Origin: a virus
Lineage: Duplodnaviria > Heunggongvirae > Uroviricota > Caudoviricetes
DNA: 42,015 bases
Reading direction: 5' to 3' (one strand)
IMG/VR virus record: IMGVR_UViG_2537562195_000009
Program-made: the position numbers and the translations under genes
Shown: piece after piece, positions 3,239-31,320 of the stretch
Numbering within the stretch: the first letter of the stretch is position 1
Layout of the letters: the number at the start of each line of letters is the position of its first letter
Notes under the pieces: model-generated
Databases searched by the model: none
Told to the model about the DNA's origin: nothing
The model's input: only the letters and a program-made list of their open reading frames with translations

Positions 3239-3601
3239 TTAACGACCTGCTGCGCGGAGTTTTCCGTCAGGTTCACCGGCAAGAGTCAGTAATTGTCCCT
3301 GGTCTTCCTGCAGAATAGTCAGGCGACCACCGCGATTGACATACATCGGCGTTTCGGTGGTGTCTTCTTCGGAAATTTTCCCGCGGTTAGTCGGGCGGAC
3401 ATATGAGAGTTTGTGTTTGATTTTCACACGGTTCTCATCAAACGGTTCGATTTCCAGATTGAGTGAGACCTTCCCTTTGGTTTTCGTGTTCATCACACCG
3501 GAAGCGACTTCACTGAGAACTGCGCCGATTTTGGTTTCAAATACGCCGCCGTCCAGCTCCCCGATAAATGCCTGCACATCAGTACTGCGTTCGCTAGCCA
3601 T
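3239..3601 (-). CDS. hypothetical early protein (YfdP-like)
   Basis: Longer ORF 3239..3919 trimmed to third ATG (MASERSTDV...) which has a GAGGAG RBS; 120 aa. Confidence 0.5.
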   Translation of the reverse strand: MASERSTDVQAFIGELDGGVFETKIGAVLSEVASGVMNTKTKGKVSLNLEIEPFDENRVKIKHKLSYVRPTNRGKISEEDTTETPMYVNRGGRLTILQEDQGQLLTLAGEPDGKLRAAGR

Positions 3602-4038
3602 TTTGCTGCTCCTCATCATATCGACCCTGCAAGGTCGGTTGGTTTCTCCACAAAACAGAGAAGAACACCTGCGGTGGCAGCCGCCCGGATGGATTGGGTT
3701 ATGAGCCCGTCGTCCGGTGATGCTCTTCTCTGTTTTGTAAAAAGAGCGGTACCAGCCGGAAGCAAGGGTACAAACTGGTACAGCCAGGACTACACACAGC
3801 ATAAAGTTGTGGTGCCGGGTGCCTCCCGGTGCCTGGCGAAGGTTGCACACCAGGCGGGTGGGTATCCACAGAAGGTCGACTGTCAGCCTCAACCTTAACC
3901 CGCGTGCGCTGAGCCGCATTCACCACAACGCTAAGGATTCTCTCTGGTTGAAAATACTTAGCTGTTATGTGCCTGTCTTTTCACCACTTCAGGCTCGGTG
4001 GTATCCTTTTAAGCCCGTATACATAAAAGGAAAATCAA

Positions 4039-4284
4039 ATGACTTTTGATGAAAAAGAACTTGATAATGCAATTAATAAAATCATCGTAACGTCGCTCTT
4101 TTCCTGTCTCAGCGACACTCAGCAGAAACAGTTCTACGAATCGGCTTTCAACATGATCGAGCGTTGTTGTTTCTGCGATGCCGACGAGTTACCTGAAAAA
4201 ATCAGGAAACAGTTGGCTGATGCTCTTCGAGTGCGACTTTCTGACCAATTTTCTGAAATGTACTCTCCGAATTTGGACAAATAG
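4039..4284 (+). CDS. hypothetical protein (81 aa), opposite strand to the early-left operon
   Basis: ORF with AAGGAAAA upstream of ATG; acidic, helical-looking product; overlaps 3' end of the convergent ORF 4202..4477. Confidence 0.4.
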   Translation: MTFDEKELDNAINKIIVTSLFSCLSDTQQKQFYESAFNMIERCCFCDADELPEKIRKQLADALRVRLSDQFSEMYSPNLDK

Positions 4285-4477
4285 AAAAAGGCCATTTCCA
4301 TTCAGGGTCTGATGGAAAGACTTCAGCCTGTTCCAAAGCACGGCGTAAAGAGAATACAACTCCAGCCATAATCTGATGTTTCCCATTGGTCCAGCTATCG
4401 CCGCTCTGATCTACAGGAGCGGCTATGTCGTATGACCAAACGACTTCATCACTATTGTTTAAAATCTGGACTTTCAT
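4202..4477 (-). CDS. hypothetical protein (91 aa)
   Basis: ORF with GGAGG upstream; in line with the leftward early operon. Confidence 0.4.
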   Translation of the reverse strand: MKVQILNNSDEVVWSYDIAAPVDQSGDSWTNGKHQIMAGVVFSLRRALEQAEVFPSDPEWKWPFSICPNSESTFQKIGQKVALEEHQPTVS

Positions 4478-4485
4478 TTTGTTCT

Positions 4486-4689
4486 TTAACCTCCAGATTT
4501 CCGCGCATCTAAAGGCGCATTCTCATTTGGTGTGAACCGAATAGTTGTGCTGCTATTGATTAATGCCCCGACACACAAGACTACGCACTCAGAGCAGATA
4601 GCAACTTCATCTTTTCCGCCTTTGGCGATGATTTTTTTTGCCTGCAGCTCGTTTGCGCCACAAAACGAGCATGTGAAATAACGGTTCAT
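4486..4689 (-). CDS. ClpX N-terminal zinc-binding-domain-like small protein
   Basis: MNRYFTCSFCGANELQAKKIIAKGGKDEVAICSECVVLCV closely mirrors the ClpX zinc-binding domain (CSFCGK...KLIAG...YICDECVDLC); start chosen at second ATG with AGAGAG upstream. Confidence 0.65.
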   Translation of the reverse strand: MNRYFTCSFCGANELQAKKIIAKGGKDEVAICSECVVLCVGALINSSTTIRFTPNENAPLDARKSGG

Positions 4690-4874
4690 TTGCGCTCTCT
4701 TACACATAGTATTTAACGAATCATCCGGTCATTCATACGCCACCGGCGGCTACTTCGTGGGCGTCCTGCCTGTTCGTTTTTGACATTTACTGACTGCTTA
4801 CGACACATGCACCGTGTTGCAACCAGATTTTGTTGTAATCCTGTAGTTGGTCTGGAACAAAAGATAAAATTAAA

Positions 4875-4911
4875 TTGCGAGATATGCAAGTGATATTTGC
4901 GAGATATGCAA
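4875..4911. promoter_or_regulatory. candidate OL operators: two copies of TTGCGAGATATGCAA spaced 22 bp
   Basis: Exact 15-bp direct repeat at 4875..4889 and 4897..4911 in the region between cI and the leftward early genes; TTGC..GCAA dyad ends. Confidence 0.5.
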
Positions 4912-23832: not shown

Positions 23833-25038
23833 ATGGCGGTTGATATTAAAGATGTCGAACAGGTCGCGCAGGAGCTGCAGCAGAAGTTTGACGACTTCAA
23901 AGCAAAGAACGACAAGCGCGTGGATGCGATTGAGCAGGAAAAAGGCAAACTTGCCGGGCAGGTGGAAACCCTGAACGGGAAACTCAGCGAGCTGGAAAAC
24001 CTCAAAAGCGATCTTGAAAAAGAGCTGCTTGAGCTGAAACGTCCGGCAGGTGGAGCGCAAAATAAACTGGCCACCGAGCATAAAGAGGCGTTTGTGGGCT
24101 TCCTGCGTAAAGGCCGTGAAGACGGTCTGCGCGATCTGGAGCGTAAGGCATTGCAGGTGGGCACCAATGAAGACGGTGGCTACGCCGTGCCGGAAGAACT
24201 GGATCGCAACATTCTTAACCTGCTGAAAGATGAAGTGGTGATGCGTCAGGAAGCCACGGTGATCACCGTTGGCGGTTCCGACTACAAAAAACTGGTGAAT
24301 CTGGGCGGTACGGCTTCCGGATGGGTGGGGGAAACGGATACGCGATCCCAGACTGCCACCTCCAGACTGGAGCTGATTGAACCTCTCATGGGGGAAATCT
24401 ACGGCAACCCGCAGGCTACCCAGAAAATGCTGGACGATGCCTTCTTCAACGTGGAGGCCTGGATCAACAGCGAGCTGGCAACCGAATTTGCCGAACAGGA
24501 AGAAATTGCCTTTACCTCAGGCGATGGTACCAAGAAGCCGAAAGGGTTCCTGGCGTATGAATCCACCGATGAAACCGATAAGGTCCGGGCGTTCGGCAAA
24601 CTTCAGCATATTGTATCCGGCGAAGCGACGGGGGTGACCGCAGACGCCATTATCAAACTGATTTACACGCTGCGAAAGGCACACCGCACCGGCGCGAAGT
24701 TCATGATGAACAACAACAGCCTGTTTGCCATCCGTTTGCTGAAAGACACCGAGGGTAACTATCTGTGGCGTCCGGGGCTGGAACTGGGGCAGCCGTCCTC
24801 TCTGGCGGGTTACGGTATCGCTGAAAACGAACAGATGCCGGATATCGCCGCTGATGCGAAAGCCATTGCATTTGGTAACTTCAAACGGGGTTACACCATC
24901 GTTGACCGTATCGGCACCCGCATTCTGCGCGACCCGTACACCAATAAACCGTTTGTCGGTTTTTATACCACCAAGCGCACCGGCGGGATGCTGGTCGATT
25001 CGCAGGCCATCAAACTGCTGAAGATTGCAGCGGCGTAA
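23833..25038 (+). CDS. major capsid protein (HK97 fold) with N-terminal coiled-coil delta domain
   Basis: 401 aa; AGGAGA RBS; N-terminal coiled coil (…KLSELENLKSDLEKELLELK…) then capsid-like body. Confidence 0.85.
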   Translation: MAVDIKDVEQVAQELQQKFDDFKAKNDKRVDAIEQEKGKLAGQVETLNGKLSELENLKSDLEKELLELKRPAGGAQNKLATEHKEAFVGFLRKGREDGLRDLERKALQVGTNEDGGYAVPEELDRNILNLLKDEVVMRQEATVITVGGSDYKKLVNLGGTASGWVGETDTRSQTATSRLELIEPLMGEIYGNPQATQKMLDDAFFNVEAWINSELATEFAEQEEIAFTSGDGTKKPKGFLAYESTDETDKVRAFGKLQHIVSGEATGVTADAIIKLIYTLRKAHRTGAKFMMNNNSLFAIRLLKDTEGNYLWRPGLELGQPSSLAGYGIAENEQMPDIAADAKAIAFGNFKRGYTIVDRIGTRILRDPYTNKPFVGFYTTKRTGGMLVDSQAIKLLKIAAA

Positions 25039-25045
25039 TCACTCA

Positions 25046-25066
25046 GGGGCGCGGAACCGCGCACCC
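25046..25066 (+). terminator. GC-rich stem-loop after the major capsid gene
   Basis: GGGGCGCGG-aa-CCGCGCaCCC hairpin just past the capsid stop; weak U-tract, possible attenuator or mRNA stabiliser. Confidence 0.35.
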
Positions 25067-25087
25067 TGTTCTGACGGGTGAAGAATC

Positions 25088-25288
25088 ATGATCCTGAAAC
25101 AAGATCTGAAATGGTCACCGGACGGTATGCGTGTTGAGGTCATTCGGGCCGGTGAGTATGACGACGGAGCGCTTCCTGCCCGGGTGCAGGAGATTGCACT
25201 TCAGGCCGGGTTAGCAGAGCGCGGAATCAGTGCAAAAAGCAGTAAAGCGGCAAAAGAGAAAAAAGCCACGACCAGTAAAGAGGGCTGA
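25088..25288 (+). CDS. hypothetical small head-module protein (66 aa)
   Basis: ORF between capsid and connector genes; weak RBS. Confidence 0.4.
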   Translation: MILKQDLKWSPDGMRVEVIRAGEYDDGALPARVQEIALQAGLAERGISAKSSKAAKEKKATTSKEG

Positions 25289-25290
25289 GT

Positions 25291-25614
25291 ATGCTTCTGA
25301 CAATGGAAGAGATTAAAGCCCAACTCCGGCTGGATGAGGATTTCGATACTGATGACCGCCATCTGCAACTGCTGGCATGTGCGGCACAAAAGCGGACGGA
25401 AACGTATCTGAACCGGAAGCTCTATGCACCGGATGAAACCATTCCGGACAGCGATCCGGACGGGCTGCACCTGCCGGATGATATTCGTCTGGGGATGCTG
25501 ATGCTTATCAGCCATTTTTACGAAAACCGCTCGTCGGTTACGGAAGTGGAGAAACTCGACATGCCGCAGAGTTTTGGCTGGCTTGTCGGCCCGTACAGGT
25601 ACTTTCCGCAATGA
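25291..25614 (+). CDS. head-tail connector (gp6-like)
   Basis: 107 aa; AAGAGGG RBS; position and size typical. Confidence 0.65.
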   Translation: MLLTMEEIKAQLRLDEDFDTDDRHLQLLACAAQKRTETYLNRKLYAPDETIPDSDPDGLHLPDDIRLGMLMLISHFYENRSSVTEVEKLDMPQSFGWLVGPYRYFPQ

Positions 25615-26021
25615 AAATTCGTCAGGCGCAGACCAGCGCAACCTACATTCTGCCGGACCCCGGTGAACTGAATAAACGCGTCCTGATCCGCCTGCGGGTG
25701 GATATGCCCGCGGATAACTTTGGCGTGGAGCCTCAATACCCGGTTACGTTCCGGACATGGGCGAAGGTTATCCAGACCAGTGCCACCACCTGGCAGGAAA
25801 CCGCGCAGACCGGGGACGCCATCACCCATTACATCACCATTCGTTACCGCCGGGGGATCACCGCTGATTATGAGGTGGTCTGCGGTGACAGTGTGTACCG
25901 GGTGAAACGTCAGCGCGATCTGAACGGGGCGCGGCGCTTTCTGCTGCTGGAGTGTACGGAGCTGGGCGAATGTAGGCAGAGTCACGGAGGCAACAATGAC
26001 GACTTCCTTTTTGCACGTTGA
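25611..26021 (+). CDS. head closure / head-tail adaptor protein
   Basis: 136 aa, ATGA overlap with upstream gene. Confidence 0.55.
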   Translation: MKIRQAQTSATYILPDPGELNKRVLIRLRVDMPADNFGVEPQYPVTFRTWAKVIQTSATTWQETAQTGDAITHYITIRYRRGITADYEVVCGDSVYRVKRQRDLNGARRFLLLECTELGECRQSHGGNNDDFLFAR

Positions 26022-26502
26022 TTTTCAGCAGCCCGCGGAGATGCGCTTTAACCGCGCCCGTGTCCGGCGGGCGTTTGTCACGATTGGTCAGCGTCATATG
26101 CGTGATGCCCGTCGGCTGGTGATGCGCCGTGCGCGGTCGGCACCGGGTGAAAACCCCGGTTATCAGACCGGACGCCTGGCTCGTTCGATTGGTTACATGG
26201 TACCCAGAGCCAGTAAACATCGCCCTGGTTTTATGGCACGTATAGCCCCTAACCAGCGTAATGGAGAGGGAAACCGCCGTATCACCGGTGATTTTTATCC
26301 GGCTTTTTTGTTCTATGGCGTGAGGCGAGGGGCAAAGCGTCGTCGCAGCCATCATCGTGGTGCATCCGGTGGCAGCGGCTGGCGACTGGCTCCACGTAAT
26401 AACTTCATGGTGGAAACGCTTGAAAAGAACCGCAGTTGGACACGCTATTTTCTGGCGCGGGAATTGCGTAAATCACTGAAGCCGGAGCGACGACACAGAT
26501 GA
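25996..26502 (+). CDS. HK97 gp10-like virion protein
   Basis: 168 aa, GGAGG RBS, basic C-terminus. Confidence 0.55.
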   Translation: MTTSFLHVDFQQPAEMRFNRARVRRAFVTIGQRHMRDARRLVMRRARSAPGENPGYQTGRLARSIGYMVPRASKHRPGFMARIAPNQRNGEGNRRITGDFYPAFLFYGVRRGAKRRRSHHRGASGGSGWRLAPRNNFMVETLEKNRSWTRYFLARELRKSLKPERRHR

Positions 26503-27059
26503 AACTGACGCCTGTTATTGCTGCGCTGCGTGCCCGCTGCCCGTATTTTGAAAACCGGGTGGCAGGCGCGGCACAGTTCAAAAATCTGCCGGAGGTCGGA
26601 AAGCTGAGACTCCCGGCGGCGTATGTGGTACCGGGGGATGATTCTCCGGGAGAAAACAAAAGCCAGACCGACTACTGGCAGGAGCTGAAAGAGGGCTTCT
26701 CCGTGGTTGTCATACTGAGTAACGGGCGTGATGAGCGCGGTCAGTTTGCCTCGTATGATGTGGTGGACGATGTCCGGCAGATGCTCTTTAAGGCCCTGCT
26801 GGGCTGGAACCCGGAAGCGTGCGGTAACCCGATTACCTATGACGGCGGCACGCTGCTGGATCTGAATCGTCATGAGCTGATTTATCAGTTCGATTTTTCG
26901 GTCATCAGCGAGCTGACTGAAGACGATACCCGCCAGCAGGATGATCTGAACAGTCTGGATGAACTGCAAACGCTGGCGATTGATGTTGATTATCTCGAGC
27001 CCGGTAACGGGCCTGACGGCGATATCGAACATCACACCGAAATAACCCTTCCTTCCTGA
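26499..27059 (+). CDS. tail completion/terminator-like protein (Mu-like tail module)
   Basis: 186 aa, ATGA overlap, immediately upstream of sheath module. Confidence 0.5.
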   Translation: MKLTPVIAALRARCPYFENRVAGAAQFKNLPEVGKLRLPAAYVVPGDDSPGENKSQTDYWQELKEGFSVVVILSNGRDERGQFASYDVVDDVRQMLFKALLGWNPEACGNPITYDGGTLLDLNRHELIYQFDFSVISELTEDDTRQQDDLNSLDELQTLAIDVDYLEPGNGPDGDIEHHTEITLPS

Positions 27060-27067
27060 GGATCCTC

Positions 27068-27238
27068 ATGTTTGTCAAACCTGTTAAAGGGCGGTCAGTT
27101 CCTGACCCTGCCCGCGGCGACCTTTTGCCCGCCGAAGGGCGAAATGTTGACGAGAACAACTACTGGCTGCGCCGTGAAGCAGCGGGTGATATCCGGCGCG
27201 TGAATAAAAAGGTGAACACCGATGACGATAAGCTTTAA
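27068..27238 (+). CDS. small conserved tail-module protein (56 aa) preceding the sheath
   Basis: ORF MFVKPVKGRSVPDPARGDLLPAEGRNVDENNYWLRREAAGDIRRVNKKVNTDDDKL overlapping the sheath start; below track cutoff. Confidence 0.4.
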   Translation: MFVKPVKGRSVPDPARGDLLPAEGRNVDENNYWLRREAAGDIRRVNKKVNTDDDKL

Positions 27239-28718
27239 CACCATTCCGTCGAATACGCTGGTTCCGCTGTTTTATGCGGAAATGGATAACCAGGCGGCGA
27301 ATACTGCACAGGACAGCGGAGCATCGCTGCTGATTGGTCATGCCAATAACGGTGCAGAGATTGTTGCCAACAGTCTGGTACTGATGCCGTCGGCAGACTA
27401 TGCACGCCAGATTTGTGGTGCGGGAAGTCAGCTGGCGCGTATGGTCGAGGCTTATCGCCAGACCGACCCGTTTGGCGAGCTGTATGTGATTGCCGTTCCT
27501 GAATCCACAGGCGCGGCGGCAACGGTTACGCTGACGGTGACCGGGGCGGCAACCGAAACCGGCACGGTGAATGTCTATGTGGGACGTACCCGCGTGCAGG
27601 CTCCGGTGACCAACGGCGATAACGTCACGACGATTGCCAGCAGTATCCAGGATGCCATCAATGCCGTTCCGGCCCTGCCGTTTACGGCTTCATCTTCGGC
27701 AGGCGTGGTCACACTGACCGCGCGTCATAAGGGGCTTTGCGGGAATGAAATTCCTGTCAGCCTCAATTACTACGGCTTTGGTGGGGGCGAAGTGCTGCCA
27801 GCGGGCGTACAGATTGCCGTGGCGACGGGGACCGCCGGAACGGGCTCTCCTGTTCTCACCGGCGCGGTGGCTGCAATGGCGGATGAGCCGTTTGATTATA
27901 TCGGCCTGCCGTTCAACGACACGGCCTCCGTTAACACGCTGGTGACCGAGATGAACGATACCAGCGGTCGCTGGAGCTATGCGCGTCAGCTGTATGGTCA
28001 TGTGTATACGGCAAAGATCGGCACGCTGTCAGAACTGGTGACCGCAGGTGACCAGTTTAACCAGCAGCACATTACCCTGGCGGGGTACGAAAAAGAGACC
28101 CAGACGCCTGCCGACGAACTGGCGGCAAGCCGTACCGCCCGCGCAGCGGTGTTTATTCGCAACGATCCGGCACGTCCCACGCAGACCGGTGAGCTGGTGG
28201 GTATGCTGCCTGCGCCGAAGGGGAAACGGTTCACGATGACCGAACAACAGACCCTGCTGTCTCATGGCGTGGCAACGGCGTATGTCGAAAGCGGGGTACT
28301 GCGCATTCAGCGTGATGTCACCACGTACAGGAAAAACGCTTACGGGGTTGCGGATAACAGCTACCTAGACAGTGAGACTCTGCATACCAGCGCGTATGTA
28401 CTGCGCAAACTGAAATCTGTCATTACCAGTAAGTACGGGCGTCACAAGCTTGCCAGTGACGGTACCCGCTTTGGTCCCGGTCAGGCGATTGTCACCCCGG
28501 CGGTGATCAAAGGGGAACTGCTGGCAACCTACCGTCAGCTTGAGCGTGCGGGGATCGTGGAAAACTACGAACTGTTTAAGCAGTACCTGGTTGTGGAGCG
28601 TGATGCCAGCGATCCGAACCGCCTGAACACGCTGTTCCCGCCTGACTATGTTAACCAGTTGCGTGTCTTTGCCGTGGTTAACCAGTTCCGTCTTCAGTAT
28701 TCAGAGGAGTCCGCATAA
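27222..28718 (+). CDS. contractile tail sheath protein
   Basis: 498 aa, followed by tube, chaperone with frameshift and tape measure genes. Confidence 0.85.
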   Translation: MTISFNTIPSNTLVPLFYAEMDNQAANTAQDSGASLLIGHANNGAEIVANSLVLMPSADYARQICGAGSQLARMVEAYRQTDPFGELYVIAVPESTGAAATVTLTVTGAATETGTVNVYVGRTRVQAPVTNGDNVTTIASSIQDAINAVPALPFTASSSAGVVTLTARHKGLCGNEIPVSLNYYGFGGGEVLPAGVQIAVATGTAGTGSPVLTGAVAAMADEPFDYIGLPFNDTASVNTLVTEMNDTSGRWSYARQLYGHVYTAKIGTLSELVTAGDQFNQQHITLAGYEKETQTPADELAASRTARAAVFIRNDPARPTQTGELVGMLPAPKGKRFTMTEQQTLLSHGVATAYVESGVLRIQRDVTTYRKNAYGVADNSYLDSETLHTSAYVLRKLKSVITSKYGRHKLASDGTRFGPGQAIVTPAVIKGELLATYRQLERAGIVENYELFKQYLVVERDASDPNRLNTLFPPDYVNQLRVFAVVNQFRLQYSEESA

Positions 28719-29074
28719 TGGCCCGTATCGGGGGAACCTGTTATTTCAAAATTGACGGTCAGCAGCTATCGCTGACCGGCGGCATTGAGGTGCCCATGAA
28801 CAGGACGGTCAATGATGACATCATCGGCCTGGACGGTTCAGTGGACCGCAAGGAAACTCACCGTGCGCCTTATGTCAAAGGGACCTTCAAGGTGCCGAAG
28901 AATTTTCCGGTGAGCAAAATCACCTCGTCTGATGAGATGACCATCACTGCCGAGCTGGCGAACGGTCAGGTCTATGTACTGTCGTCTGCCTGGCTGCACG
29001 GCGAAGCGAACCATAATGCCGAAGAAGGCACGGTCGATCTTGAGTTCCACGGTGAAGAAGGGGATTACCAGTAA
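28718..29074 (+). CDS. tail tube protein
   Basis: 118 aa, ATGA overlap with sheath. Confidence 0.75.
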   Translation: MARIGGTCYFKIDGQQLSLTGGIEVPMNRTVNDDIIGLDGSVDRKETHRAPYVKGTFKVPKNFPVSKITSSDEMTITAELANGQVYVLSSAWLHGEANHNAEEGTVDLEFHGEEGDYQ

Positions 29075-29343
29075 TGAAAGAGCTTGAGTTAAAGAAACCG
29101 ATTACCGCTCATGGCGAGACACTCTCCGTACTGGAGTTTGATGAGCCCACCGGGAAAGATGTCCGCGAGCTGGGGTATCCCTACCAGATGAATCAGGATG
29201 AGTCCGTCAGACTTCTGGCGCATGTGGTGTCGAAATACATTGTGCGGCTGGCGAAAGTGCCGCAAAGCTCTGTCGACCAGATGTCTCCGGCAGACCTGAA
29301 TGCAGCGGCGTGGCTTGTGGCTGGTTTTTTCCTCCAGGCCTGA
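29074..29343 (+). CDS. tail assembly chaperone (G-like)
   Basis: 89 aa; canonical slippery heptamer T_TTT_TTC near its 3' end. Confidence 0.75.
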   Translation: MKELELKKPITAHGETLSVLEFDEPTGKDVRELGYPYQMNQDESVRLLAHVVSKYIVRLAKVPQSSVDQMSPADLNAAAWLVAGFFLQA

Positions 29344-29498
29344 CGGCTGAATACCTCACTGATCGCTTCTTTGACTGCGCCAGCTACTGGCGCATTAATC
29401 CTTTCGAATTGCTGAATATGCCGATCAGTGAAATTCCCTTGCTGGTCAGTCAGGCAAACAGGATAGAGCAGGAGAAACGCACACATGGCGGAATTTGA
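29074..29498 (+). CDS. tail chaperone frameshift fusion (GT-like) via -1 ribosomal frameshift at 29325..29331
   Basis: -1 frame after T_TTT_TTC is open to 29498 (FFPPGLTAEYLTDRFFDCASYWRINPFELL…), ending inside the start of the tape measure gene. Confidence 0.65.
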
Positions 29499-31320
29499 GC
29501 TTAAGGCGTTGATCACCGGTGTCGACAGGCTTTCTCCCGCGCTGTCGAAAATGCAAAAGAAAATCCGGGGATTTAAACGCCAGGCGGAAGAAGCGTCACA
29601 GGGTGGGCTGGCGCTTGGTGGCGGACTGGCAGCGGGTCTGACGCTTTCCCTGAAATCTTATGCCGATCAGGAAAACGCCGCCACCGGGCTGAAGGTCGCC
29701 ATGATGGATGCGAACGGCGAGGTTGGAAAGAGCTTTCAGGACATCAATAAACTGGCTATTGGCCTGGGTAACCAGCTACCCGGTACAACGGCTGATTTCC
29801 AGAACATGATGCAGATGCTGGTGCGTCAGGGGATCCCGGCAGAAAACATTCTTGGCGGTGTGGGTAAAGCGACAGCTTATCTTGCGGTACAACTGAAAAA
29901 AACACCGGAAGCGGCTGCTGAGTTTGCTGCAAAGATGCAGGATGCTACCGGAACGGCGTCAGAAGACATGATGGGGCTGTTCGACACTATCCAGAAGGCG
30001 TTTTATCTGGGTGTTGACGATACCAACATGTTGTCCTTCTTCACTAAAACCAGCTCTGTTCTGAAGATGGTGAACAAGGACGGTCTTCAGGCTGCACAGA
30101 GCCTTGCCCCCATCAGCGTCATGATGGATCAGATGGGGATGAACGGGGAGTCGGCAGGTAACGCCCTGCGAAAAGTTATCCAGTCCGGATTAAGCGTTAA
30201 GAAAATCAGGGACGTCAATAAAATCATGGCCCGCCAGAAACTCGGGGTACAGCTCGATTTTACTGACGGCAAAGGAAGTTTTGGCGGTCTTGATAACATG
30301 TTCAGGCAACTGGCAAAGCTGCGAAAACTGACCGACGTTAAGCGAACAGGTGTACTTAAGGCAATATTTGGTGATGATGCCGAAACCCTTCAGGTGGTCA
30401 ATGCACTAATCGATAAAGGAAAGGATGGCTACGATCAGATCCAGCAGAAGATGAATAAACAGGCCAGCCTGAATAAACGTGTTCAGGCCCAGCTTGGTAC
30501 GCTGTCCAACCTGTGGGAGGCAATGACGGGGACCGCAACTAACGGCCTTGCGGCTATTGGCGGCGCATTTTCTGGTGACGCCAAAAATATCACGCAATGG
30601 CTGGGGGAGTTAGGGGAAAAATTCACGAAGTTTGCGGATGAAAATCCCCGGGTTATTCGCGGCGTCGTCGGGCTTGCTGCCGGTCTTGCGATTCTGAAAC
30701 TGGGATTGATGGGCGTTGGCGGTGCCATCAGTATTGTCAGCAGGATCATGTCGATGACGCCGATTGGAATGATTGCGACGGCGATAGCCCTGGCTGCGGG
30801 ATTAATTATCACTAACTGGGATGTTGTCGGACCTTATTTCAAGAAGCTCTGGGAAACCATTGGTCCTTATTTTGAGGCTGGCTGGGAACTTCTGAAGAAG
30901 GTTTTTGCCTGGTCGCCGCTGGGGATGGTAATCAATAACTGGGGACCGGTTGTTAAGTGGTTTCAGGATATGTGGGACAAACTGAAGCCAATTATTGCGT
31001 GGTTTACCGACAGTTCCGGTGACACGGTCGATGCCATTAACTCTGCGCAGTGGGGCGCGGGTGCTTATGATGCTTATGGGACGGGAATACCGGCACGGGG
31101 ATACACACCTTATCAGGCGGTAGATCCGGCTCAGTCAAACAACGCCTCCGGTGCCACAGGCCCGAATCCCTTCATGATTAACAAAGCTTCTGCGCCAAAA
31201 GTTGATGGTGAGATCAAGGTCTCTTTTGTGAATTCGCCTCCGGGTATGCGGGTTATGGAAACGCGATCCAGCGGTTTTGATGTCAGCCATGATGTTGGCT
31301 ATACGCGCTTTGGCAGGTAA
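29485..31320 (+). CDS. tail tape measure protein
   Basis: 611 aa; Gly/Ala-rich helical and hydrophobic segments; position after chaperone pair. Confidence 0.85.
   Translation: MAEFELKALITGVDRLSPALSKMQKKIRGFKRQAEEASQGGLALGGGLAAGLTLSLKSYADQENAATGLKVAMMDANGEVGKSFQDINKLAIGLGNQLPGTTADFQNMMQMLVRQGIPAENILGGVGKATAYLAVQLKKTPEAAAEFAAKMQDATGTASEDMMGLFDTIQKAFYLGVDDTNMLSFFTKTSSVLKMVNKDGLQAAQSLAPISVMMDQMGMNGESAGNALRKVIQSGLSVKKIRDVNKIMARQKLGVQLDFTDGKGSFGGLDNMFRQLAKLRKLTDVKRTGVLKAIFGDDAETLQVVNALIDKGKDGYDQIQQKMNKQASLNKRVQAQLGTLSNLWEAMTGTATNGLAAIGGAFSGDAKNITQWLGELGEKFTKFADENPRVIRGVVGLAAGLAILKLGLMGVGGAISIVSRIMSMTPIGMIATAIALAAGLIITNWDVVGPYFKKLWETIGPYFEAGWELLKKVFAWSPLGMVINNWGPVVKWFQDMWDKLKPIIAWFTDSSGDTVDAINSAQWGAGAYDAYGTGIPARGYTPYQAVDPAQSNNASGATGPNPFMINKASAPKVDGEIKVSFVNSPPGMRVMETRSSGFDVSHDVGYTRFGR

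Follow-up and report, generated by a model that had tools for sequence, protein, structure and literature searches.

The window analysed here is a stretch of 42,015 nucleotides (nt) from a tailed phage (IMG/VR record IMGVR_UViG_2537562195_000009). It contains a gap between the start codon of a yfdP-like gene on the minus strand (ATG, 3599-3601) and the ATG of a plus-strand gene at position 4039. We propose that this gap is probably a dicF-type non-coding RNA locus of the leftward operon driven by the early promoter pL, which is processed and terminated like the dicBF region of the Qin prophage of Escherichia coli K-12 and includes a hairpin as a probable RNase III or leader element. Judged by its sequence, the element is an STnc100-type 5' domain followed by a DicF-type 3' cassette, and it fails the curated cut-offs of both families. 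Its modules are conserved in sequence and structure and show covariation; full-length matches below threshold, reciprocal covariance models and synteny link them to DicF and STnc100. By analogy with these RNAs, we would expect transcription from pL, termination, cleavage by nucleases, Hfq binding and possibly a target.

The DicF-like unit (3739-3803) combines a candidate small RNA (sRNA) seed with an intrinsic terminator. The seed region retains the motif GCUGUGUG(U/A)AGU(C/U) in relatives from E. coli, Salmonella, Cronobacter, Klebsiella and Citrobacter, including those with a different terminator. The terminator hairpin itself spans 3746-3784 and the U-tract follows directly; in ST64B, Kp4866-6 and phiES15 the stem sequence has changed, while the hairpin and the U-tract (CCUUUUU tail) are kept. 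A simple terminator scan missed 3739-3786 because of its large loop. With a covariance model of K-12 DicF and 14 relatives, none of which has the window-type loop (R1), the search of the 42-kb window gave 3739-3803 on the minus strand with 42.1 bits and a rough E-value of 1.5e-8, the next match having an E of 0.85. The same model scored the copy in the e14 prophage with 64.8 bits and those of SfV, mEp460 and ST64B with 49.3, 40.8 and 32.3 bits, respectively. In the reverse direction, a model without K-12 DicF (R3) recovered K-12 dicF with 33.3 bits (E 2.3e-6, equally rough) as the only match below E = 1 in 5 kb of Qin. The Rfam DicF model (RF00039), which gives 76.7 bits for K-12 dicF, aligned over its full length with one relative of the window, L190 (29.6 bits, E 2.7e-4).

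In Qin, DicF is an Hfq-dependent RNA that represses ftsZ, xylR and pykA (bioRxiv 10.1101/2023.04.14.536235; PMC5069750). Its source is the polycistronic dicBp transcript, from which RNase III releases a 190-nt and RNase E a 53-nt form; it has no internal promoter (bioRxiv 10.1101/2023.04.14.536235). The dicF-dicB spacer contains a known RNase III site (PMC5371410); the published RNase III cleavage map lists this site and none in ymfH of e14. A study from 2016 found no DicF matches in ~2,000 phage genomes (PMC5069750).

Directly upstream of the DicF-like unit lies a structured core of a kind that we call type B. It resembles STnc100, an sRNA of prophages that has lately been connected with PasD from prophages of enteropathogenic E. 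coli; both STnc100 and PasD are Hfq-associated and are normally found in the late region, downstream of Q/stx and near the lysis genes. The Rfam search that had been proposed as a check on the gap was rewarded only below threshold: a relaxed scan aligned the STnc100 model (RF02076) from end to end (positions 1-206 of 206) with 3737-3959 on the minus strand (41.1 bits, E 2.7e-7), whereas at gathering thresholds no family was found in the gap. Further sub-threshold STnc100 matches occur at the same position of the leftward operon in SfV, ST64B, 118970_sal3, phiES15 and a Klebsiella phage, and also between dicF and dicB in K-12 Qin. A covariance model built from window-type sequences only (R2) matched the Qin dicF-dicB spacer with 61.8 bits and STnc100-like copies of type A with 29-49 bits.

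To collect relatives, viral contigs were searched with the 20-mer CCGGGAGGCACCCGGCACCA, which gave at least 120 loci. The architecture derived from 88 unique cores consists of helix P1, a GAAU junction and helices P2, P3, P5 and P6, together with a pseudoknot between the strand after P2/P3 and the P5 loop. In an alignment of 35 sequences of types A and B (A6), 92.7% of the cells at paired positions were paired, compared to 70.1% in shuffles and at most 44% in slid controls. Compensatory changes were observed in 22 of the 30 pairs, among them the P6 variants GGUGG/CCACC and CCUGG/CCAGG. The partners of the pseudoknot covary as well: across 24 sequence classes, own partners form 6.75 bp and cross-combined partners 4.87 bp (p = 7e-8). 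They read AAGGUUG/CAACCUU in the window, AAGGCUG/CAGCCUU in phiES15 and AGACUGACAAA/UUUGUCAGUCU in contig L018, while type A copies have CCAGUC/GACUGG, CUAGGC/GUCUAG and others. This cross-sequence test was used instead of a loop shuffle within each sequence, which was weak (p <= 0.05 in 15% of sequences), and fixed-column counts of the pseudoknot on A6 were dropped, as the register shifts by one column between subtypes. A riboswitch-like switch, in which P1 of the core would compete with the terminator, was rejected: the terminator stems vary freely among relatives (GGUACC, GGCGUC, UUAUCC, GCCCGC) and the 3' strand of the core is constant, so that no conserved alternative pairing is possible. 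On one viral contig (L016, 2325-3351, minus strand) four STnc100-like cores stand in tandem within ~1 kb, and several further contigs have two copies roughly 270-950 nt apart.

The third module is a three-way-junction hairpin, which contains the feature that first drew attention to the gap. The original prediction, made from the letters alone, had noted a perfect 15-bp inverted repeat in a GC-rich segment without a coherent reading frame, and considered an antitermination (nut-like) element, a terminator or attenuator, or a small RNA. The GC content is indeed raised, with 0.535-0.565 across 3501-4000 compared to 0.38-0.49 on both flanks. The repeat exists as described but lies 2 nt further to the right, with ACAAAACAGAGAAGA at 3650-3664 on the plus strand and its exact reverse complement at 3724-3738, separated by a 59-nt spacer. 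Two matches for it occurred in none of 100 dinucleotide shuffles, and it is the sole inverted repeat of the window with a 12-nt exact seed within 150 nt. Its arms can be extended to 25 nt with 84% complementarity (3650-3674 and 3714-3738). Folding of the minus-strand RNA of the gap, as had been suggested, gave z = -5.26, compared to -3.61 for the plus strand.

The conservation of the repeat was likewise confirmed, as it is kept among relatives with compensatory changes, which are seen across phages of Escherichia, Salmonella, Klebsiella and Citrobacter. In 23 distinct hairpin sequences (alignment A2), 95.7% of the cells are paired, compared to 39-53% in slid controls; compensatory changes affect 6 of 30 pairs, one position being G:C in 12 sequences and C:G in 11, for example, and G:U pairs occupy 31 cells at three stem positions. 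Of the two apical hairpins, A (CCGGA...UCCGG, with an inner GGG-CUCAUAA-CCC) has the nearly invariant sequence CGACGGGCUCAUWACCCAAUCCAYCCGG, while B (GCGG-CUGCCA-CCGC) is variable yet always paired (GCGG/CCGC, GCUG/CAGC, larger inserts). At least 120 viral contigs contain the hairpin, and in 124 of 126 loci it comes immediately behind the U-tract of the terminator; no Rfam family matches 3650-3738.

A terminator formed by the repeat itself was rejected. Neither strand has a U-tract behind it, the next letters being GGAGAAAC (minus strand) and AAAAAG (plus strand), and the terminator scan reported none. An intrinsic terminator is nevertheless present in the gap, at 3739-3786, and the small RNA that had been suspected corresponds to the modules at 3803-3739 and 3929-3806, which adjoin the repeat but do not include it. 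The G:U pairs, the orientation with the operon and the flanking signals favour the minus-strand RNA as the relevant form of the hairpin. Its 20 contiguous stem pairs are kept by compensatory changes, and about two turns of near-perfect double-stranded RNA characterise an RNase III substrate. We regard the hairpin as a putative portable leader element of the read-through mRNA, with RNase III processing or 5' stabilisation as its most likely role by analogy. In the proximal leader that follows, GGAGAAA is nearly invariant, and a small hairpin keeps its pairing with changed sequence (CGACC/GGUCG, GGCGG/CCGCC, GCGCC/GGCGC, GCCCC/GGGGC). The first gene after the hairpin and leader varies among relatives and is yfdP-like, rdgC-like or another; the yfdP-like gene of the window is the equivalent of SfV orf32 and ST64B sb37.

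The promoter and operator motifs at 4861-4911 place the gap within the leftward operon, apparently ~0.9-1.25 kb downstream of pL and behind two small genes, one encoding a ClpX-type zinc-finger protein and one unknown. ST64B and mEp460 have the same arrangement of pL and operators, and the operator motif TTGC-N7-GCAA is also present in the cI-cro spacer. After induction, RNA polymerase would run from pL (about 4860) across the two small genes and would then transcribe, in this order, the pseudoknotted STnc100/PasD-type domain with its 9-bp closing helix, the single-stranded seed and the DicF-type terminator. A stop at the terminator would yield an RNA of ~190-220 nt, comprising the core and the DicF-like tail. 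Read-through transcripts would carry the three-way-junction hairpin, whose perfect 20-bp stem would most likely act as an RNase III processing site or as a stabilising 5' structure. Processing at the hairpin would detach the sRNA from the mRNA of yfdP and yfdQ and define where the latter begins, and the terminator may also attenuate the downstream genes. Directly 5' of the core, relatives and Qin have a 12-bp helix (GAAGCGCA.../...UGCGCUUC) at the position of a hairpin of 6-7 bp in the window. In our reading of the Qin sequence, the mapped 5' end that RNase III gives to the 190-nt form of DicF (bioRxiv 10.1101/2023.04.14.536235) would fall at this helix; the role of the shorter version in the window is uncertain.

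Several points weigh against this interpretation. The STnc100 match remains under the cut-off of 47 bits, and the Rfam DicF model (cut-off 48 bits) gave no match on the window, even with E <= 10 on 1 kb or on 91 nt. The models R1 and R3 are self-built with a shortened calibration and include close relatives of the window. A6 was fitted to the structure of the model, which inflates the pairing counts, and both sets of relatives were gathered by exact motifs, the invariance of which is therefore given by construction. The terminator of the window has a U-C mismatch (GGCUG, compared to GGCGG in relatives) and a 19-nt loop, and may be weak. RNAduplex predictions for DicF-like RNAs with the ftsZ leader were insignificant even for authentic DicF (z = -0.91) and are uninformative. 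For the hairpin, the minimum free energies of -45.2 and -47.9 kcal/mol do not favour the minus strand. Moreover, Qin has a type B core in place of this hairpin after the terminator, which makes the analogy of the hairpin to an RNase III site indirect.

Table. Features of the gap and its surroundings, with positions in the window
Feature	Positions	Strand	Sequence or remark	Basis
Conserved single-stranded stretch, candidate sRNA seed	3787-3805	-	UUUAUGCUGUGUGUAGUCC; between core and terminator	conservation
Intrinsic terminator	3739-3786	-	stem GGCUGUACCAG/CUGGUACCGCU, 19-nt loop, tail CUCUUUUU	minimum free energy fold, models
Structured core, STnc100/PasD-like, type B	3806-3929	-	124 nt	Rfam, own models, covariation
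Core helix P1	3921-3929 with 3806-3814	-	GUUGUGGUG/CACCACAAC	88 unique cores
Core helix P2	3905-3918	-		
Core helix P3	3898-3902 with 3854-3858	-		
Core helix P5	3832-3854	-		
Core helix P6	3815-3829	-	CCGGG-AGGCA-CCCGG, stacked on P1	
Core pseudoknot	3890-3896 with 3839-3845	-	AAGGUUG with P5-loop CAACCUU	
Three-way-junction hairpin	3650-3738	-	contains the inverted repeat	covariation, fold
Basal stem of the hairpin	3650-3669 with 3719-3738	-	20 bp	pairing in A2
Proximal yfdP leader	3602-3649	-		conservation
Invariant stretch	3642-3649	-	GGAGAAAC	
Small leader hairpin	3622-3637	-	CGACCUUGCAGGGUCG, conserved GCAG loop	
Shine-Dalgarno sequence of yfdP	3609-3614	-	GAGGAG	
yfdP-like gene, first downstream of gap	3239-3601	-	120 amino acids	phrog_204, E 1e-49
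Short hairpin directly 5' of core	3930-3963	-	AGCUAAG...CUUAGC	sequence
Promoter-like cassette and putative 5' untranslated region of gene 4039-4284	3962-4038	+		sequence context
Divergent plus-strand gene	4039-4284	+		full-length phrog_3311 match
Putative early-left promoter pL	4861-4889	-	TTGCAT-17-TATCTT	sequence motif
Putative CI operator repeats	4875-4889, 4897-4911	-	TTGCATATCTCGCAA twice, overlapping pL	motif
cI terminator	4946-4929		just before pL and operators	terminator scan

The product of the first small gene after pL (4486-4707, minus strand) has 73 amino acids and a C4 zinc finger of the ClpX type (PF06689, 41 bits); such a protein is unusual at this position, and it is no antiterminator of the N kind. 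Gene 4039-4284 on the plus strand and gene 4202-4477 on the minus strand are convergent with an overlap of 83 nt (4202-4284), and both have full-length PHROG matches; transcription from pL would run antisense through the former.

As an alternative, the core and the DicF-like tail may form an autonomous 'moron' sRNA gene that has its own promoter within 3960-4016 and is expressed in the lysogen, with the hairpin on a separate downstream transcript. This is consistent with the abundance of STnc100 and PasD in uninduced lysogens, with a TTGTTAAAA-type -10 element just upstream of P1 in type A copies, and with a conserved block directly upstream of the core in several unrelated phages. We consider it unlikely. 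The scan found no sigma-70-like site on the minus strand, where the candidate -10 hexamers CATAAC, AATAAC and CACAAC lack the final T, and the block is better read as an extended -10 promoter on the plus strand that serves divergent genes. Its 55 nt (3962-4016) recur with 82-96% identity in e14 and in phages of Klebsiella, Cronobacter and Salmonella that are otherwise unrelated. In the window it contains the extended -10 TGGTATCCT (3999-4007), and a Shine-Dalgarno sequence, AAGGA, follows at 4027-4031; a consensus scan of 3962-4038 found no -35 element. Elsewhere the extended -10 reads TGGTATACT, TGGTATGCT or TGGTATCTT, and the pattern TGGTAT(A/G/C)(C/T)T is each time followed, 20-30 nt on, by the Shine-Dalgarno sequence and ATG of a different plus-strand gene. 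From this context, 3962-4038 is probably the promoter of gene 4039-4284 and lies outside the RNA locus. In addition, the block is missing from ST64B and mEp460, whose core is nevertheless retained within an open-reading-frame (ORF)-free pL leader, and DicF itself has no promoter of its own (bioRxiv 10.1101/2023.04.14.536235).

The cassette TGGTATNCT, preceded by the imperfect palindrome CACCAC-N10-GTGGT, is present in the window (3962-4016) and in L005, L008, L135, L184, L185 and L233. The rightward 'moron' gene that follows it varies between unrelated phages and is ymfI in e14; the palindrome could be the site of a regulator.

It appears quite improbable that the structured RNAs are cis-acting processive antiterminators, analogous to put of HK022 or nut of lambda, in an operon without N. 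Like put and nut they are RNA elements of an early operon upstream of a terminator, which must be passed for yfdP expression, and they lie between pL and the first long genes. No N-like protein or arginine-rich motif is encoded by the ORFs between pL and the gap, and with its pseudoknot and almost invariant 3' hairpin the core is unusually elaborate for a base-pairing sRNA. The put RNA, however, comprises two stem-loops of ~70 nt, with putL just downstream of PL and putR ~270 nt from the PR start (PMC9378689), whereas the gap elements differ from it in size, architecture and distance from the promoter and have no similarity to putL or putR; the early region of HK022 that holds put (24500-30100) gave only chance matches of 10-21 nt. 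Compared to lambda nut, a conserved boxA/boxB is missing in addition to N. The boxA-like string CGCUCUUUUUACAA (3748-3735) is the terminator tail, and its GCUC part is unconserved, with ACCUUUUU, CCCUUUUU and UCCUUUUU in relatives. The nut-like element of the original prediction was abandoned on these grounds. Furthermore, the hairpin follows the terminator and is thus without effect on it, type A copies reside in late operons that are already served by Q, and the homologues accumulate as discrete Hfq-bound sRNAs.

An action of the inverted repeat as DNA, be it a protein-binding palindrome, a cruciform or a recombination site, we judge to be very improbable. The 15-bp palindromic pair is perfect, compensatory changes preserve the symmetry of the DNA as well, and the free energies do not discriminate between the strands. 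Yet the 31 G:U cells would be mismatched as DNA and in the opposite strand, two covarying hairpins are formed within the 59-nt spacer, and the element is always oriented with the operon, between terminator and ribosome-binding site.

That the region encodes a small YmfH-like protein, or is decaying junk without function, is likewise very improbable: an annotated ymfH in K-12 e14, hypothetical ORFs in phage records and a frame open from 3919 into yfdP speak for a protein, but the frames differ between e14 and the window, relatives have stops in all frames and indels that are not multiples of three, while the covarying pairs of core and hairpin and the presence in about half of the complete E. 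coli genomes and in several genera argue against junk. The frame in the window belongs to an in-frame ORF of 226 amino acids (3239-3919), whose extension upstream of yfdP is junk-like and not conserved among relatives, as expected from the lack of a coherent frame noted originally. Stops in all three frames were found in ST64B, 118970_sal3, phiNP, Kp4866-6 and phiES15, with the similarity scattered over the frames, and the indels measure 1, 2 and 25 nt. Protein coding, by the 226-amino-acid ORF or by YmfH, was therefore rejected. The absence of a conserved coding frame, together with the compensatory changes in the repeat, favours a functional RNA.

K-12 e14 carries a copy with 91% identity that is annotated as ymfH and is flanked by xisE and ymfI. 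In the e14 of E. coli DH1 (L233), ymfH lies entirely on the non-coding module (3502-3813, homologous to 3604-3915 of the window), and, by sequence, is probably not a protein gene. Other annotations cover the GC-rich non-coding leader of relatives, namely the deposited hypothetical ORFs gp36 and gp37 of mEp460 (L004, 2572-3125) and gp050 and an extension of gp049 in 118970_sal3 (L003, 2095-3230), all of which are probably spurious. Of 5426 complete E. coli genomes, 2786 contain parts of the gap, as do 75 phage records. In the literature searched for the conserved 20-mer, ymfH and e14 sRNA, we found no prior description of the hairpin or of an RNA from e14 ymfH. In the early-right regions of SfV (L001, 6486-6674) and ST64B (L002, 5732-5920), IsrK and C4 antisense RNA score above the Rfam cut-offs; neither has a match in the window at gathering threshold.

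The dicF-type locus that we favour may be part of a larger group, although this extension is doubtful. STnc100, PasD, the 190-nt DicF precursor and the gap element could belong to one superfamily of prophage RNAs, with a pseudoknotted 5' domain that derives from a tRNA-like fold and acts in cis as a processing or protection module. P1 would correspond to the acceptor stem and P6 to the T-arm, and the domain would, for example, recruit RNase P or RNase III or block RNase E, so that interchangeable cassettes of seed and terminator would be freed from long transcripts of the phage and stabilised. As a second module, undescribed to date, the three-way-junction hairpin would define where the downstream mRNA begins. 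Between UUGUGG and CCACAAC, where other relatives have the structured core, L190 and L214 contain a tRNA-like element (Rfam tRNA, 29.5 bits), the T-arm stem of which (CCGGG/CCCGG) equals the P6 stem and the acceptor stem P1. In contrast, the window core has no Rfam tRNA match, and its P6 loop is AGGCA and not a T-loop; ARAGORN reported no tRNA in the window or its relatives, including the L190/L214 element. The L190 copy (4364-4488, minus strand; Rfam cut-off 29) has a 57-nt insertion. Isolated T-arm-like hairpins of the type GGUUCGAUUCC occur in other leaders (L007 2830-2930, L129, L147 and L213).

The assignment gives a testable identity to a stretch that about half of the complete E. coli genomes and many temperate phages carry, SfV, SfII, SfIV, ST64B, mEp460 and Stx2 phages among them, and that is today unannotated or annotated as hypothetical proteins, such as ymfH of K-12 e14. 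As K-12 carries the 91% identical copy, the predictions can be tested in standard strains. Defective prophages appear not to be the only carriers of sRNA cassettes of the DicF type; shared structured domains tie DicF to the STnc100/PasD family, to whose structural model a pseudoknot is added, and with the conserved hairpin early-left operons gain a new candidate for a processing or leader element. The locus is not a new kind of system; its use lies in re-annotation and in understanding how prophage sRNAs are built and released.

Among known systems, the hairpin can be compared to the RNase III sites of the leftward transcripts of lambda, which lie in the N leader and in sib. Like them, it has an extended stem with near-perfect pairing, which belongs to an untranslated part of the pL transcript and stands shortly before a ribosome-binding site. 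The sequences are not similar, and the conserved branched apex of the window hairpin would be needless for a plain RNase III site.

With STnc100 and PasD, the element shares an alignment over the full length of the model, with P1, the GAAU junction, a P2 loop containing GCG and P5 in common, as well as the CCGGG-AGGCA-CCCGG hairpin, a 3' terminator and a secondary structure supported by the covariation in A6. Differences are the score under the gathering cut-off, a rearranged P2/P3 region (GCGGCUCAGCGCACGCGGG in place of CCCCCUGUGCGGAGGGGCG), the location in the early-left operon instead of downstream of Q and stx, the DicF-like 3' part and the lack of an evident promoter of its own. Like DicF, the unit of the window lies in a repressor-controlled leftward operon and ends in an intrinsic terminator. 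It differs from DicF in that the curated model does not match, in the seed (GCUGUGUGUAGUC, compared to UUUCUGGUGACG in DicF) and in its loop of 19 nt, compared to 11 unpaired loop positions in the Rfam consensus.

The system that resembles the gap as a whole is Qin dicBF. The Qin operon begins with a leftward promoter under repressor control and small ORFs; a first structured domain comes next, then dicF and its terminator, and a type B core leads on to dicB. Two different structured domains thus flank dicF (L234, 2750-2870 and 2950-3090): the upstream one is a 'type D' element common to many leaders of Stx phages, and the downstream one is the type B core directly before the Shine-Dalgarno sequence of dicB, with the listed RNase III site 1649470 inside it. 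In the window, by contrast, the type B core is upstream of the DicF-like unit, yfdP and yfdQ follow in place of dicB, and the three-way-junction hairpin is absent from Qin. Both lie in a leftward operon under CI/Cro control, after small ORFs and before the first effector genes, and both have a terminator hairpin of the type UUGGCGGUAYCAG...CCGCCCUUUUU preceded by a U/G-rich single strand, as well as structured domains on both flanks. The domain in the Qin spacer is homologous to the core of the window, and the covariance models match reciprocally.

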